DNA of 64,000 nucleotides from NCBI GenBank assembly GCA_000091205.1, contig AP006499.2, one strand, 5' to 3'. Source of the DNA: Cyanidioschyzon merolae (Eukaryota). A program made the translations under genes and the position numbers. Of the stretch, positions 46,141 to 55,439 are shown piece by piece. Below the pieces are notes generated by a model. It was given only the letters and a program-made list of their open reading frames with translations. It ran no database searches and was not told the DNA's origin. Within the stretch, counting starts at the first letter, position 1, and the number at the start of each line of letters is the position of its first letter.

Positions 46141-47894
46141 CAGAGGAAGTCGACCAAAATTGGATTGAAAGACTGTGATCCGACACGCAATCTAGTCCTG
46201 TATATCCAGACTGATGACGAGAACGAGCCCCGTCTGGATACGCCAAGTCTTCTTGTAGCAAGGTTCTAGTTATGACCTATTCAGATGAAAGCAGGACGCC
46301 TCGCCTGATCCAGAGCGCAGTGCGCGCTAATGACACTTGTTGGTTGTCGCGATCGGCAAGCGGCACCAGCTATCGCTGGTATTCGCGAGCACTGCCCATG
46401 TGTTTGAGCTGGCGAGGAGATGCTGGGCTCGGACGTACTGGTACCCCGAAGCGAACAACAGTTGGAACCCGATCGAGCACCATCTTTTGCACCAGTGCCC
46501 TAACAGGTACAAGGTCGAGTCTCAGATGCGTCTACCGTGAACGCACAAGTCGCAGACCGTGCTTATCTACGCGAACTCAGATCCTGCAGCACGAAATAGC
46601 TGGTATCGCGTCAATTTCAATCGAGTGTGCATACCCTAGCTCAAACTCTGATGCAGGCTGCTTGTCAAACAAATGCATCAATGAGACTCGCGCGACGAAG
46701 CGCTCGTCATGCGGCTAGAGGGCGCTGCCAAGACCTGCGTTGCCGATGACGCAACCGCGACGATCGAAGGTCACCAAAAACTCGCGCTGCCTCGCTCCGA
46801 CTGACAAGCTGCCGCTTCGCACGAATCTCGTCGACAGCATCATCTCCTCGAACATTCCATACATTCGCTACGTTCGGTGCAAAGCTCGGAAAGAGCGCAT
46901 CCCCCGACACGGAGCTCGTGCGCGAACAGCCGAGGCCATGTACCAGACGACGCCAGTCGATACTGGGACCGGAGCACAACGCGCTAGATGTGCGCTCCAA
47001 CGTGTCCATGTGCACGTTTCTCTTCATGATGCCAATCGAGGCTGAGCATCCGAGCGGATTTCAGGTTTACAAAGAGCAGACGCACCGATTCATATCGACG
47101 TGCATCGAAGAATGCGCTGTGCACCAGACAAACGAGAAAAAGTCCGACGCGCCCAAAGAAGCATCCACAGAATACCGGTTGACCGGAAAAACGCGCGTCT
47201 TGGGGCATATCGCCAGGAGACCATCGGTTGTTTCTGTTATCCAGAGCCGCTGAAACCGCAGATCGCAAATCAAAGGCCGTAGTTTTTCAGGCGGCTGACC
47301 GCAGCGTCGCCTGATCCCGTGTTTCCCAGCACAGGGCACGCAGCATGCGATATAGCGGGAACGAAGGGATGTTTTCGCAGGCTTTCAGTAACTCGTGTGC
47401 CCTGTCTAGCGAATCTCAGACAAATCGGGGAATGTGCTTCATGGAATAGTACAAGCACCAGGCGAAACGGCAGTAATCGGGAATATCCTACGCTTCCGAC
47501 TGAGCGTAGCCCTATTGAATCGAAAACACAGGTGGAGCGTTTCGCTTGGCGTCGCAGTGCAGCGCCCGTTTCATGCAAGAACGTCAGTGTCGGGACGGCT
47601 CGTACTCGTCCTAATAGGACACGTACTCGTCCTGGAGAAAGCTCAGGAATGCACCTGGTATCTCGATATAGAGAAGTTTCGTCTGTGGTTACGGGGAAAC
47701 CGCATCATGAAATCGGAATCAACGGAAAACCTCATAGCTGGTTTCAGGTTCCGATATGCCCGAAACGCCGCGTTTGTCGTATGCCCCGAAGAGCGAGCAG
47801 CAACAGATGCATACAGTTACCGCACGGACTAGAGCGAAAGCTCGATCACCGTCGATTGCACGCTGCATGCGACTACCTCTATGACGACTACCAT

Positions 47895-47929
<35 letters not shown>
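47895..47929. repeat. (TAC)4(TGC)8 compound microsatellite
   Basis: The tract reads tactactactactgctgctgctgctgctgctgctg. It lies ~25 bp beyond the MLH1 stop. Confidence 0.95.
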
Positions 47930-47952
47930 TAGGGACTCCTGATCCGCAATGT

Positions 47953-50424
47953 TCAGCAGCGTTCAAAGATGCGATAGAGCCGTTCCGTTCGCGCAACCAC
48001 CGTGAGCGTACCATCCCGCCCCCAAACCGCCGGCGCATGAAAGCGTTCATGATCGCGAACAAGGATTAAAACGCGTTCGGCTGCTCCAGCTATGGCAGCT
48101 AGATCCTCGGTAGAGTGCTTTTCCATCGTGAACGCTTCTAGGTAACTCTCTGTATACAGAAGCGCCAGTGCCCGAATAACCTGCCGTATTCGAGTCTGGC
48201 GATCCGCTTCGTGCCGATAACGCACTAAGCGATCACCGAAAAGCGTCAAGCTCGAGGCTCGTGGATGAACCGCCACCGAACAATCTACCCATGGAAGGCT
48301 GTGCAGATACAGGTGGAGAGCCTGCGGCCTCGCCGACCAGCAGCTGAGACGCGTTGGACCTTCCCCGAGTTCACTCATGTGCCCTATTTCAGGACATAAC
48401 GGCTCAAGACAGAGATGAATCCCGCAGTAGAAAGCGAGCTCCAATGCATATGAGTACCAACTGGAAAGAAACTCGCCGTTTGCGTCCACACTCGGGCGAT
48501 TCGAGACATCGAGCTCTACGACCCAAGGAGATTGGAGCCGGACGATAGGCGTTGCTGCGGGTTGCGGCTCCAAAGCACCTACAAGCTGCTGATAATAGAG
48601 TTCCTCCAGTATCCGTGACAAATCGACCGCAACAAGCGCAGTACCGAACTGAATCAAACAGCAACGATCGTCAACAGCACCAACAAAGACGTGCTCGCGA
48701 AAGACCTCGGCAATCGCATGCGAATACCCATCGACACATTCCCTGTGGAGCGCTTCTGCGATGCGCTCTCGCGTTGTCGTCGCTTCTAACTGGAGGCAGC
48801 GGGACAGCGTGCTATCCCCGTTGTGCCCTGCTGAGCGTGCGGGCGTTGTCAATACGCGTACCCGTCCTTGTATGACCCCAGTAACGCTCTGCCATTGCTC
48901 CAGCCTGGTAGATTGAGCATCGACTCGAATTCGCTGCGACGGCGGCAGTGTACACGTAGATGATCGCTGACTAAATAGACGCTGCTTGTGCTCTGTACAA
49001 AGCTGTTCCCAGCAGTCTGCAGCGTCCAGTTGCCTTGATCCGCCATCCTGGGCGTTCGCGCAAGCGACAACTTTCCCGGTACCTGCGTCGTTCGGTGGAC
49101 CCGCCATCGCTTCAGCAGCACGCTTGCGAGTGCTCCCGATGAGTGCTTCCCGCAACGACTCGAGGCTGACAGTGGCTCGGGCGGCCTCTGCGTCCGAGTC
49201 CCGTGGCAGCAACGCAGCTGTGCCAGAGCCGGCACGTACCCGAGGCGCCTGCACCGCGAAACTCCGTTGCGCGCCACTACTGATGAGTTGTTGCTCTAAC
49301 GCCTGCACGATATTGGAAAAGGCAATTTGCTCATCGAGAAAACGAACTTCTTTCTTTGCCGGATGCACATTCACATCAAGAATTTCAGGGGGCACCTTCA
49401 GCTCCAGATAGCAAAACGGGTGATGCGGACCTTTCAAGTAGTACCTGGCGTACAGTTGCTCGATGGCTCTCCGGAGAGTACGACACTCGACGAGGCGCCC
49501 ATTCACAAAATAGATATGCAATGGTTTCGTCTGACTCGCTCCAAGCAGACTGAAATACGCGCGCTCAAGCAAGATTTCTGCCTCCTGGACGGTACCCGCA
49601 ACTGCGTGCTGCACTCGGTGAAGCACCCGGCATCCGAGTGTTCCCAACGAGGATGCCACCTTCTGTCCAAATATAGCTCGAATGTTATCCAAGTGGCTAG
49701 CATGGACAAACGTATGAAGGTCGTCGGTTTCCGCTTCCGTCGCTCGCAGAGCGCAAGTCTCGCGCTTCCGACAGCACATCGCTATTCGCCCGGAATGATA
49801 GAGTGCATAACGGGATACGATACTAAGCATCTGACGGTATTCTTCAGCGTGCGTGCGAAGAAAACTCTCATATCTAGCGGGCATGGAGCGGAACATATCC
49901 GTCACCAGGATGGTGGTACCCGGTGTCCGGGCTGCGGCCTGCACCCCAGGAGCCACCAGTTTCCCCTGCCGATAGCTCGCTCTCCAGCCGTGCTCTTCAT
50001 GATGCGTCCGGGAAACTATGCAAAGTTCGCTGATGTGTGATATGGAGGCGAGCGCCTCACCCCGAAAGCCACAGGTGGCGACCTTGGCGAGATCCTCCAC
50101 TGAACGCAACTTGCTCGTGGTGTGGCGTTCGCATAGCAACCGGGCGTCCTGCACTCGGATTCCACACCCGTTGTCGACAACCTCAAGACGAACGATCCCG
50201 CCACGAATTATCGACACGCTTATACGTGTCGAACCGGCGTCGATGGCGTTCTCTAAGAGCTCTTTTAGCGCTGCCGAGGGACGGGCGACCACCTCTCCAG
50301 CTGCCATGCGACTGACGACTTCTGGTCCAAGCGGCAAAATCCGCCGCGGCAGCTTCTCCTCGTCATTTGTTTGTTGGTCAACCTCCGAAGGAACCGCTGC
50401 ATTAACGTCGGAGTTTATTTCCAT
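47953..50424 (-). CDS. MLH1: DNA mismatch repair protein MLH1
   Basis: The GHKL ATPase motifs are present (LKELLENAIDAGSTRISV, VVDNGCGI and GFRGEALASISHISEL). The C-terminus ends in the MLH1-specific FERC. The start was set at ATG 50424 (MEINSDV...), because the longer ORF-track N-terminus has no homology. Confidence 0.9.
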   Translation of the reverse strand: MEINSDVNAAVPSEVDQQTNDEEKLPRRILPLGPEVVSRMAAGEVVARPSAALKELLENAIDAGSTRISVSIIRGGIVRLEVVDNGCGIRVQDARLLCERHTTSKLRSVEDLAKVATCGFRGEALASISHISELCIVSRTHHEEHGWRASYRQGKLVAPGVQAAARTPGTTILVTDMFRSMPARYESFLRTHAEEYRQMLSIVSRYALYHSGRIAMCCRKRETCALRATEAETDDLHTFVHASHLDNIRAIFGQKVASSLGTLGCRVLHRVQHAVAGTVQEAEILLERAYFSLLGASQTKPLHIYFVNGRLVECRTLRRAIEQLYARYYLKGPHHPFCYLELKVPPEILDVNVHPAKKEVRFLDEQIAFSNIVQALEQQLISSGAQRSFAVQAPRVRAGSGTAALLPRDSDAEAARATVSLESLREALIGSTRKRAAEAMAGPPNDAGTGKVVACANAQDGGSRQLDAADCWEQLCTEHKQRLFSQRSSTCTLPPSQRIRVDAQSTRLEQWQSVTGVIQGRVRVLTTPARSAGHNGDSTLSRCLQLEATTTRERIAEALHRECVDGYSHAIAEVFREHVFVGAVDDRCCLIQFGTALVAVDLSRILEELYYQQLVGALEPQPAATPIVRLQSPWVVELDVSNRPSVDANGEFLSSWYSYALELAFYCGIHLCLEPLCPEIGHMSELGEGPTRLSCWSARPQALHLYLHSLPWVDCSVAVHPRASSLTLFGDRLVRYRHEADRQTRIRQVIRALALLYTESYLEAFTMEKHSTEDLAAIAGAAERVLILVRDHERFHAPAVWGRDGTLTVVARTERLYRIFERC

Positions 50425-50694
50425 GCAGTGAAAGCCATATCGTCGAGTGCGTACGCAAGTTGGGACGCGCTCAACGCTCCCGCGCACCACTGCCAGTGGC
50501 AGACGTCTACCGGCATATTGTGCTCACTCCGGGAAGGCGCGCTTTTTTCCTGGCGACTTGTCATTTACACGAACCCAGGGGAACTCGATTGAGCGCTTGT
50601 TCACTGAATTGGGAGAACTTTCCGGGAACTCGCCCTGGAACCGTGTCGCTTCTCAGGAACAAACTCAGTACCGCATGGTCTAGGTCGTTCGACT

Positions 50695-51864
50695 ATGCTC
50701 GTGGGTATCATCGGACGCAGGTGTGCCGGAAAGAAAACGGTACACAGTTTACTTGTCGAGCGTTTTGGCTTTCTTCCAGCGTACCTGGAACCAGCTGAAA
50801 TCGAAGCGAATCCTCAAGTACGACAGCAACCAGTCTCGCTGGTTTCTGGACAGCCTGCTTGCAACGATGAGCCGCTAGCAGCCCTGACACTGGAGGCACC
50901 GAGCGACTGCTGGCGATCGGATAGGTTTTACGTCCTGCCACCAGGATTGAGCACGAAGCAGGCCAGGGCGCTGAGGAAACGGCCGTACTTTCTCCTCCTA
51001 GCTGTAGACGCTCCTGGACTTGTTCGTTTCCGGAGATGGCAGAGCCAATGCGCATCCGAAGGCACAAACTGCATAGCATCCGCTTCCCAGAGCAGTGTCC
51101 TGGAGTTCCTTCGGCTCGATGACGCCGATTACTTTGGACAAGCTGTGACGGATGCTGGCTGGGATGCTCGTTGCGAGCACGAGGCCGTGGCGGTACCACG
51201 CCCATCGCCAGACGACCCTGATGCACTGTGGCGGGCCTTTGAGCTGAGCGACGTCCGTGTCTATAACCCCACGGACAATCGTGAGCAGCTTGCCGCAGCG
51301 TTGCAGCGTTTGCAGCTTCAGAGACCTGATTGGCTTCGTCCCGCCTGGGATACCTATTTCATGCGCATTGCGGAGCTCGCCTCGATGCGAACGAACTGTA
51401 TGAAGCGGCGCGTAGGTGCGGTGATTGTGCGAGATCATCGCGTCATTGCCACGGGTTACAATGGTACACCGCGAGGTACACGGAACTGCAACGAAGGCGG
51501 CTGCCAGCGGTGTAATGGTGGAGCTCGAGCTGGCCACGCTCTTGACGTTTGTCTGTGTTTGCACGCCGAGGAGAACGCGATCATCGAGGCAGGACGGGAG
51601 CGGTGTGCAGGTTCCACGCTCTTCACCAACCTCTGTCCTTGTTTGGCGTGCACGAAGAAAATCGTACAAGCAGGCATCCGCGAGGTCGTCTACGGAGCCA
51701 CGTACGCTATGGATACGCGTTCTGCGCGCCTATTTGCTGAAGCAGGTGTCCGAATGCGGCACTATCCGTGCACCTTGTCCAGGGGAAGCAGCGCACCGTT
51801 CGAGGTAACCTCCGTATCTCCCGTTGTCAGCAACCATTCGACACAATTGCAGTCCAGCGGATAG
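50695..51864 (+). CDS. dCMP deaminase with N-terminal P-loop (kinase-like) domain
   Basis: The C-terminal CMP/dCMP deaminase zinc site comprises HAEENAIIEAG and CPCLACTKKIVQAGIREVVYG. The N-terminal ~150 aa carry Walker A GIIGRRCAGKKT and a Walker-B-like FLLLAVDAP. The ATG at 50695 was verified. Confidence 0.8.
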   Translation: MLVGIIGRRCAGKKTVHSLLVERFGFLPAYLEPAEIEANPQVRQQPVSLVSGQPACNDEPLAALTLEAPSDCWRSDRFYVLPPGLSTKQARALRKRPYFLLLAVDAPGLVRFRRWQSQCASEGTNCIASASQSSVLEFLRLDDADYFGQAVTDAGWDARCEHEAVAVPRPSPDDPDALWRAFELSDVRVYNPTDNREQLAAALQRLQLQRPDWLRPAWDTYFMRIAELASMRTNCMKRRVGAVIVRDHRVIATGYNGTPRGTRNCNEGGCQRCNGGARAGHALDVCLCLHAEENAIIEAGRERCAGSTLFTNLCPCLACTKKIVQAGIREVVYGATYAMDTRSARLFAEAGVRMRHYPCTLSRGSSAPFEVTSVSPVVSNHSTQLQSSG

Positions 51865-53930: not shown

Positions 53931-54172
53931 ATGCATCATGACCAATGGTGTCCTTGAATGTCCCTATTCTCGCCCGCGTGCTGCGCATCAGATGCACCAT
54001 GACCAATGGTGTCCTTGAATGTCCCTATTCTCGCCCGCGTGCTGCGCATCAGATGCATCATGACCAATGGTGTCCTTGAATGTCCCTATTCTCGCCCGCG
54101 TGCTGCGCATCAGATGCACCATGACCAATGATGTCCTTGAATGTCCCTATTCTCGCCCGCGTGCCGCGTCCG
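53931..54172. repeat. 61-bp tandem repeat x4 (plus a degenerate 5th copy from ~53860), each unit with a CCAAT core
   Basis: The unit catgaccaatggtgtccttgaatgtccctattctcgcccgcgtgctgcgcatcagatgca(c/t) starts at 53941 and again at 54002, 54063 and 54124. The array lies between the divergent uL15 (start 53651) and RPL4 (start 54291) genes. Confidence 0.95.
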
Positions 54173-54290
54173 TCGCCACCGGCATCCGCGCAAGGCGCTC
54201 GCGTTTCCCCCAAATGCATACTGCATCGTCTGCAAACGACGTTACAGCAGTGCTTCGTGTGCAGTGACAAGGGCCCGCGTTGCCGTAGCC

Positions 54291-55439
54291 ATGGCGTACG
54301 CATCGAGGCCGCTTGTTTCTGTGATATCGACAAAGACAGGTGAGTCTATTGGCGAGCAAGTCAAGTTGCCACAAGTGTTTCTGGCTCCGATTCGCCCGGA
54401 TGTGGTGCAGATCGTGCACACCGGCGTGGCGAAGAACGCCCGTCAGCCGTACGGTGTGAGCCGGATGGCCGGCGAGTGGGCCACTGCGCACTCCTGGGGA
54501 ACAGGTAGGGCAGTCTCCCGAGCGCCTCGTGTGCACGGAGGCGGTACGCATCGATCGGGTCAAGTGAGCGGTGCGAACTTTGCACGAGGGGCTCGCATGT
54601 TCGCTCCGACTCGTATCTGGCGACGTTGGCACGTCAAAGTCAGCCGCGGCCAGCGTCGCTATGCAGTCGCCTCGGCGCTGGCGGCCAGTGCCCTACCCGC
54701 CCTGGTCATGTCGCGTGGCCATCGCATCGACTCTGTCCCTGAACTGCCGCTGGTGCTGAGTGAGGACTCCGAGTCCCTGCGCCGTACCAAGGACGCCGTC
54801 GCTCTCCTGAAAGCGATTGGTGCATATGAGGATGTCGAGCACGCAGCGAAATCGAAGAATCAACGGGCCGGTCGCGGTAAAATGCGCAATAGGCGGTACA
54901 CTATGCGTCGGGGTCCTCTCATTATCTACGCGAATAGCGAGAAAGATCCCAAGTCGGGTGCACCAGACAACCTCAGTCGCGCTTTCCGTAATTTGCCTGG
55001 CGTCGAGTGCTGTCATGTGGAGCGCTTGAATCTCCTCCAGTTGGCACCAGGAGGTCATCTCGGCAGGTTCTGCATATTCACGAAGCAGGCCTTCGAGCGC
55101 CTTGATGAAATTTACGCCACCGGTAAGAGCGGCTTCAAGTTCCCTCGGGCAGTGATGACGCAGGCGGATCTCTCGCGTATCATCAACTCGGACGAGGTTC
55201 AGAGTGCGCTGCGTCCGATCCGACGGGTGCCGAGGTTGCCACGGTTGAAGCGCAACGCCTTGCGTAATCGCCGGATGATGCGCTTACTCAATCCTGCCTA
55301 TGATGCTTTCATACGCAAGATGAGCGAGCGTGTACCGGACGCATCACGGCGCTTGCCAGCGTCAGAGAGAGCTCGCGTCCGAGCGATTGGAAAGCGATAC
55401 ATTCGCCAGTTGCTGGACACAAATCCAACCGAAGTTTAA
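54291..55439 (+). CDS. RPL4: 60S ribosomal protein L4 (uL4, cytosolic)
   Basis: RPLVSVISTKTGESIGEQVKLPQVF...GVSRMAGEWATAHSWGTGRAVSRAPRVHGGGTHRSGQVSGANFARGARMFAPTRIWRRWH is typical of eukaryotic L4/L1e. The start was set at ATG 54291 (MAYASRPLVSV). The ORF-track start at 54141 lies inside the tandem repeat. Confidence 0.9.
   Translation: MAYASRPLVSVISTKTGESIGEQVKLPQVFLAPIRPDVVQIVHTGVAKNARQPYGVSRMAGEWATAHSWGTGRAVSRAPRVHGGGTHRSGQVSGANFARGARMFAPTRIWRRWHVKVSRGQRRYAVASALAASALPALVMSRGHRIDSVPELPLVLSEDSESLRRTKDAVALLKAIGAYEDVEHAAKSKNQRAGRGKMRNRRYTMRRGPLIIYANSEKDPKSGAPDNLSRAFRNLPGVECCHVERLNLLQLAPGGHLGRFCIFTKQAFERLDEIYATGKSGFKFPRAVMTQADLSRIINSDEVQSALRPIRRVPRLPRLKRNALRNRRMMRLLNPAYDAFIRKMSERVPDASRRLPASERARVRAIGKRYIRQLLDTNPTEV

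Follow-up and report, generated by a model that had tools for sequence, protein, structure and literature searches.

A kinase-like N-terminal domain on the long-form dCMP deaminase of the red alga Cyanidioschyzon merolae

Background

Two bacterial enzymes, DcdV of Vibrio cholerae (VC0175) and the anti-phage deoxycytidine triphosphate (dCTP) deaminase of Escherichia coli AW1.7, carry an N-terminal P-loop kinase domain followed by a C-terminal zinc deoxycytidylate deaminase domain, and the same arrangement is found in the product of the gene treated here, a deoxycytidine monophosphate (dCMP) deaminase encoded in a 64,000-nucleotide stretch of Cyanidioschyzon merolae DNA (GenBank assembly GCA_000091205.1, contig AP006499.2; hereafter the window, in whose numbering the C. 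merolae features are given). The coding sequence is complete and occupies 50695..51864 on the + strand (389 amino acids (aa) plus stop). Both bacterial enzymes act on dCTP and dCMP and lose function when the P-loop is mutated; the preprint describing the anti-phage dCTP deaminase reports the same two domains, both of them required, and the authors of the DcdV study had already noted the kinase plus deaminase architecture in eukaryotes.

The C. merolae product is 100% identical to a protein annotated as "dCMP deaminase [Cyanidioschyzon merolae 10D]" and is thus a known, annotated family member whose two-domain architecture has been published. An original prediction made from the DNA letters had located the 389-aa open reading frame (ORF) with its Walker A and FLLLAVDAP motifs and had proposed a fusion of a P-loop kinase-like domain with a dCMP deaminase; the ORF and the residue positions were confirmed, as was the fusion, by family profiles, fold and homologues. 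Its further suggestion that the enzyme is unusual did not survive the annotation, the orthology with yeast Dcd1 and the published architecture of the DcdV and anti-phage enzymes. The gene encodes a housekeeping enzyme, which would convert dCMP to deoxyuridine monophosphate (dUMP) for thymidylate synthesis and is of a "long" type common to fungi (yeast Dcd1), Cyanidiophyceae, Rhodelphis and Cyanophora. Its N-terminal domain is regarded here, with moderate confidence, as a kinase-derived, nucleoside triphosphate (NTP)-binding accessory or regulatory and structural domain on an otherwise normal dCMP deaminase.

Membership of the long-form dCMP deaminases

More than 100 fungal proteins, drawn from all major fungal groups, aligned with the C. 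merolae protein at ~92% query coverage and 36-45% identity, and full-length homologues were also recovered from other Cyanidiophyceae, Rhodelphis limneticus and the glaucophyte Cyanophora paradoxa, the origin of the Rhodelphis and Cyanophora sequences being checked by source accession. Saccharomyces cerevisiae Dcd1p (YHR144C, 312 aa) was collinear with the C. merolae protein from end to end at 39% identity and had in common with it the two-domain layout, the invariant deaminase motifs and the landmarks R96-P97, D-A-P, R111 and F138. Every sequence-level comparison made placed the protein among the eukaryotic long-form (Dcd1-type) dCMP deaminases.

The zinc-dependent dCMP deaminase domain (residues 215-358; 51337..51768, + strand) was identified by matches to Pfam PF00383 (86.9 bits against a cut-off of 25), to PDB sequences (2hvv, a dCMP deaminase, E 3.7e-23) and, with Foldseek, to 5c2o (E 2.4e-14, TMt 0.82), 2hvw and 2w4l, the nearest solved structures being the dCMP deaminases of Streptococcus mutans, cyanophage S-TIM5, human and T4. 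Residue conservation, here and below, was counted across 118 homologues. The catalytic HAE motif (H290 and E292; 51562..51570, +) and the zinc-binding PCxxC motif (P315-C316-L-A-C319; 51637..51651, +) were invariant, as were C235, N256-G-T-P259 (P259 nearly so), N294-A295 and Y337, and the cysteines of an insert preceding the HxE motif (C265, C270, C273, C286 and C288) were invariant or nearly so. The dCMP-deaminase/ComE clade is distinguished by a Cys between helix 1 and strand 1, a Cys/His-rich insert before HxE, an NxxP ending strand 2, an NA after HxE and a Tyr between strand 4 and helix 4 (PMC3239186). The C. merolae protein carries this signature, with secondary-structure placement taken from its AlphaFold (AF2) model, and its C-terminal domain has the motifs of a complete zinc dCMP deaminase. 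With E 3.7e-23 for the bacterial ComEB/S. mutans type (TIGR02571, 99 bits) and E 5.5e-16 for human DCTD, the domain is nearer in sequence to the former, which suggests that the eukaryotic long form and the animal short form are not orthologous.

Fold and donor site of the N-terminal domain

The N-terminal P-loop kinase-like domain comprises residues 1-207 (50695..51315, +). Searched alone, the C. merolae domain gave no significant match in Pfam, NCBIfam or PADLOC, and its assignment rests on family-level and profile-profile methods: among 22 N-terminal domains of the family, Pfam AAA_18 was matched by 18 and CoaE by 11, and NCBIfam PRK08356 was matched by 15. The full-length AlphaFold model had a predicted local distance difference test (pLDDT) score of 82.7 and a predicted template modelling (pTM) score of 0.79, and was weak only at residues ~53-69 and in the C-terminal tail. 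The domain is a real P-loop kinase-fold domain whose nearest classes are the adenylate-kinase-related, dephospho-CoA kinase and cytidylate kinase classes, in keeping with the original guess of a CoaE- or CMK-like fold.

The Walker A motif or P-loop, GRRCAGKKT (residues 7-15; 50713..50739, +), lies within GIIGRRCAGKKT (residues 4-15) and is well conserved at G7 (114/118), G12 (117/118), K13 (114/118, with R in three more) and S/T15 (94/118). The second motif that had been singled out, FLLLAVDAP (residues 99-107), presumably corresponds less to a Walker B than to the "D-x-P" on strand 4, ahead of the lid helix, of adenylate-kinase/CoaE-like kinases. It forms part of the strand 4 and lid helix segment RPYFLLLAVDAPGLVRFRR (residues 96-114; 50980..51036, +), which is also present in prokaryotic homologues and in which P107 and R111 were invariant and R96 (115/118), P97 (117/118), D/E105 (116/118) and R114 (116/118) almost so; the lid arginines, R111 and R114, whose retention had been left to be checked, are therefore both kept. 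Other landmarks were W73 (117/118), F138 (116/118) and N191 (118/118), the last being the terminal residue of the domain's last strand, SDVRVYN (residues 185-191; 51247..51267, +), with a counterpart (N167 in the prokaryotic alignment numbering) that is invariant in prokaryotic homologues too. The donor half of the site (P-loop, R111, R114, F138 and N191) is thus common to the eukaryotic and prokaryotic groups.

An exhaustive search of representative clusters with an N-terminal domain profile yielded 2997 matches, 981 of them at E<=1e-10; the best 150 of the 2997 all had E <= 1.5e-27 and included several of the eukaryotic homologues already collected, and these 150 were uninformative on distant relatives. 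Among viral structures, the best match to the domain was BFVD G8DGT5 (328 aa, E 1.8e-5, 20% identity), roughly the size of a long-form dCMP deaminase, and the remaining viral fold matches were to generic kinases only.

Prokaryotic homologues and the acceptor site

A scan of prokaryotes at one genome per species revealed six loci matching residues 1-355/369 of the C. merolae protein at 32-37% identity, from two complete Bryobacterales chromosomes, another acidobacterium, one myxobacterium, a Methanosarcinales archaeon and an Anstonellaceae archaeon (L003, 2501-3523; L004, 2501-3502; L005; L006, 2495-3514; L007, 1244-2248; L008, 2501-3502). Their products are 329-340 aa in length, and their N-terminal domains match PRK08356 end to end and align with the eukaryotic N-terminal domains in hhalign at 99.8% probability (E 2.6e-29, 169 columns). 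On the anti-phage dCTP deaminase profile NF041025 of NCBIfam (437 positions), residues 1 to ~240 of these proteins, comprising the entire N-terminal domain and the first part of the deaminase, correspond to positions 2-268; a second stretch matches as well, for a total of ~150 bits against a cut-off of 400 bits. Their gene neighbours (NucS, an acyltransferase, diphthamide synthase, FKBP, QueF and SAICAR synthetase) formed no obvious defence islands, and the proteins look like an uncharacterised housekeeping class between the short dCMP deaminases and the DcdV-type defence enzymes. When plasmids were searched by tblastn with the C. merolae protein for DcdV-like sequence, only the deaminase domain (residues 211-375) was matched, and the two "deaminase" plasmid matches that were examined were ~150-aa proteins. 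The fusion, which the original prediction proposed to look for in related genomes, is shared by fungi, red algae, Rhodelphis, Cyanophora and prokaryotes, and judged by this homology it predates eukaryotes.

Invariant in the prokaryotic homologues are Y-S29-L-S-D32, R47 and G-N55-x-L-R58, which lie between strands 2 and 3, and D-S84-I-R86-x-P, at the end of strand 3 (prokaryotic alignment numbering). By its position and chemistry this segment would be the phosphate-acceptor, or nucleoside monophosphate (NMP)-binding, half of an adenylate-kinase-like site. No counterpart of these invariants was found in any eukaryotic member aligned; where prokaryotes carry the acceptor segment, the eukaryotic members have a stretch that varies in length and composition. 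In C. merolae this stretch is a predicted-disordered insert (residues 32-70; 50788..50904, +) that could not be aligned among eukaryotes and is modelled with low confidence (pLDDT <50 at residues 53-69 and averaging ~54-65 over residues 31-50), and the position of the prokaryotic D-S-I-R reads L-P-P-G-L. Of the features expected of a functional P-loop nucleotide kinase, the fold, the Walker A motif and the lid arginines are thus present in C. merolae and the acceptor segment is absent.

The donor half has in turn been eroded in one group of fungi. GxxxxGK was missing in 104 of the 120 proteins nearest to S. cerevisiae Dcd1, mostly from Saccharomyces and related budding yeasts, and in only 9 of 120 diverse other homologues, three of these being K-to-R changes and most of the others truncated or extended N-termini. 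S. cerevisiae and its close relatives lack both the Walker A lysine (GTKFCGCED) and R114, which C. merolae retains. The P-loop-less budding yeasts, with variants such as GTKFCGCED and GTKYSGVER, have mostly lost R114 too and have kept the N-terminal domain; Ogataea, Kuraishia and Australozyma retain SGK. S. cerevisiae Dcd1 is a characterised dCMP deaminase, and on the budding-yeast pattern the P-loop is dispensable for a working enzyme of this family.

Role of the N-terminal domain

The N-terminal domain would descend from a small adenylate-kinase/CoaE/UPF0200-like nucleotide kinase that was fused to a deaminase already in prokaryotes. The eukaryotic domain appears to have retained the phosphate-donor (NTP-binding) half of the site, consisting of the P-loop, the two lid arginines and a putative base-contacting Asn, and to have lost the acceptor-binding half. 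Since the donor half was kept and the acceptor half lost, we infer that the domain is most likely an accessory, NTP-binding module with a supporting or regulatory role towards the attached deaminase and a part in its structure, and that it is probably not a kinase feeding dCMP to that deaminase. NTP binding would accordingly be under selection in most lineages, C. merolae included, and survival of the ancestral kinase reaction in eukaryotes is unlikely on the motifs retained. Because the domain persists in yeasts that have lost the P-loop lysine and R114, it also has a role independent of nucleotide binding, probably a structural one. A precedent for such a role is known from Schizosaccharomyces pombe Tad2, whose kinase-like N-terminal domain is inactive as a kinase and yet needed for deaminase activity (PMC8217354). 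The loss of function in P-loop mutants of the bacterial DcdV and dCTP deaminase is a further precedent, in that the kinase domain is there of consequence for the deaminase.

Several points weigh against this interpretation. The Walker A lysine and the two lid arginines are under strong purifying selection, as they would also be in an active phosphotransferase or NTPase; a new acceptor, bound for example in the deaminase domain or where the two domains meet, is conceivable despite the loss of the ancestral site; the Saccharomycetaceae pattern demonstrates dispensability of the P-loop only there and not in C. merolae; and no study of, or biochemical data on, the N-terminal domain of any eukaryotic dCMP deaminase was found in the searchable literature.

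On one alternative view the protein is an active bifunctional enzyme, its N-terminal domain being a working phosphotransferase or NTPase such as a deoxycytidine or dCMP kinase, or an activity that processes dCTP or deoxycytidine diphosphate (dCDP) to dUMP as proposed for the DcdV types. The near invariance of the Walker A lysine, both lid arginines and N191 outside the Saccharomycetaceae, the complete kinase-like site of the prokaryotic homologues, the requirement of the bacterial enzymes for the P-loop in acting on dCTP and dCMP, and the fixed two-domain unit of the AF2 model are all consistent with it. We nevertheless consider it unlikely: the prokaryote-invariant acceptor residues D32, R47, R58 and R86 are absent in all eukaryotes, with a variable, low-confidence segment and L-P-P-G-L in their place in C. 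merolae; a Ser or Thr immediately after the Walker lysine is found in only 38 of the 118 members; the budding yeast enzyme deaminates dCMP although its Walker lysine is gone; and phosphorylation of dCMP would be expected to compete with deamination rather than supply its substrate. The channelling of dCMP from kinase to deaminase envisaged in the original prediction likewise found no support in the motif pattern, given the missing acceptor segment in eukaryotes and the loss of the Walker lysine in budding yeasts.

A related idea, which seems to us quite unlikely, is that the conserved donor site is used catalytically, by stripping or transferring phosphate from dCTP or dCDP to yield dUMP, or else as a second nucleotide sensor through which adenosine triphosphate (ATP) or deoxynucleoside triphosphates (dNTPs) would gate the deaminase. 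If this were so, it would explain the source of dCMP in organisms such as fungi, which are not known to have a deoxycytidine kinase, and would make a housekeeping eukaryotic enzyme a mechanistic sibling of the anti-phage dCTP deaminases.

At the opposite extreme, the domain might be a pure pseudokinase scaffold that binds no nucleotide and acts only in folding, stability or oligomerisation, as the Tad2 precedent and the persistence of the domain in Saccharomycetaceae that lack the P-loop lysine and R114 would allow. Outside that family, few positions of the domain are as well conserved across fungi, red algae, Rhodelphis and Cyanophora as G7, G12, K13, R111 and R114, and this conservation of phosphate-binding residues makes a ligand-free scaffold hard to sustain and, in our estimation, improbable.

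It is very improbable that the protein is a defence-type dCTP-depleting enzyme, that is, a eukaryotic counterpart of the anti-phage dCTP deaminase with an antiviral rather than a thymidylate role. The architecture is shared, and the C. merolae protein gave collinear matches to the PADLOC dCTPase profile (E 2e-35), with which a Cryptococcus homologue aligns from residue 2 to 327, and to NF041025; its score on the latter was only 99 bits, far under the equivalog cut-off of 400 bits. The protein is, moreover, an orthologue of housekeeping yeast Dcd1 with the fungal conservation pattern of a core enzyme, and its nearest prokaryotic homologues also lie amid housekeeping genes (NucS, SAICAR synthetase, QueF and diphthamide synthase). 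No defence island or mobile element context was found around the gene, which lies on a eukaryotic nuclear chromosome with MLH1, L15 and RPL4 as neighbours (a small RNA (sRNA) was not searched for). The defence reading was rejected on score, orthology and genomic context.

A gene-model artefact, in which two genes or a wrong start mimic a fusion, is scarcely credible even with an N-terminus in which no Pfam domain is recognised in the C. merolae sequence by itself, as the ORF is single and uninterrupted, its ATG is the first start codon past an in-frame TGA 31 codons upstream, the collinear architecture recurs at six prokaryotic loci and in >100 eukaryotic proteins, the AF2 model of the whole chain is confident, and the next Met, M223, lies within the deaminase core, C-terminal to the invariant R215-P-x-W-D-x-Y-F. 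A start at M223, the event under which the fusion call was to be given up, would cut off invariant core residues of the deaminase, and the internal-start alternative is therefore closed.

Genomic neighbourhood

Given the 100% identity with the annotated C. merolae 10D protein, the window is red-algal nuclear DNA, and the surroundings of the gene are ordinary eukaryotic housekeeping: an MLH1 mismatch-repair homologue (47953-50490, - strand) on one side and, on the other, a bacterial-type ribosomal protein L15 gene (52869-53666, -) and the gene for cytosolic ribosomal protein L4 (RPL4; 54141-55439, +). In the L15 protein the Pfam domain begins only at residue 175, and the long N-terminal extension upstream of it is possibly an organelle-targeting region. 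A simple-sequence tract lies at ~47881-47950, immediately past the 3' end of the MLH1 ORF; its translation in the ORF list is TTTITTTTAAAAAAA for the + strand and AAAAAAAVVVVMVVV for the - strand.

Comparison with known systems

The comparative picture is that of a fusion older than eukaryotes, in which eukaryotes would have retained nothing of the kinase site but its NTP-donor half and one yeast lineage would have lost that half too. What remains of interest is the role of the conserved donor site in eukaryotes and the enzyme's evolutionary relation to the prokaryotic kinase-deaminases and to the dCTP deaminases of phage defence, a shared ancestry that would place one module in both housekeeping and immunity. 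The short form is the one used by animals and plants, so that a nucleotide pocket specific to fungi, if required by this enzyme of the dNTP pool, could have practical value.

The short-form dCMP deaminases (S. mutans 2HVW/5C2O, human DCTD 2W4L and phage T4 1VQ2) share the catalytic fold and motifs at 30-41% identity, in chains of 144-193 aa without the N-terminal kinase-like domain that the C. merolae protein has. The stand-alone small P-loop kinases (the SSO1041/UPF0200 AdkA-like proteins (3LW7), PRK08356 and CoaE) differ from it in consisting of one domain only and in having the acceptor-binding subdomain complete. The S. pombe Tad2 N-terminal domain (7EEY), fused to a tRNA adenosine deaminase, is of another kinase subfamily, being uridine-cytidine-kinase-like; the resemblance is one of analogy and not of orthology. 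Relative to its orthologue S. cerevisiae Dcd1p, the C. merolae protein has a longer disordered insert at residues 32-70 and a 30-aa C-terminal tail (residues 359-389; 51769..51861, +), which is unconserved, unaligned among homologues and of low confidence (pLDDT <50 at residues 362-389). With the ~335-aa prokaryotic kinase-deaminases it has in common the length class, full-length homology and housekeeping neighbourhoods; the prokaryotic proteins retain SLSD, R47, GN-LR and DSIR, whereas every eukaryotic member has replaced these motifs. The bacterial DcdV and dCTP deaminases, finally, are defence-associated proteins of 532-576 aa with dCTP and dCMP as substrates, DcdV being restrained by an sRNA (DifV); the C. 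merolae protein is shorter, has housekeeping genes as neighbours and is without the acceptor-site segment.

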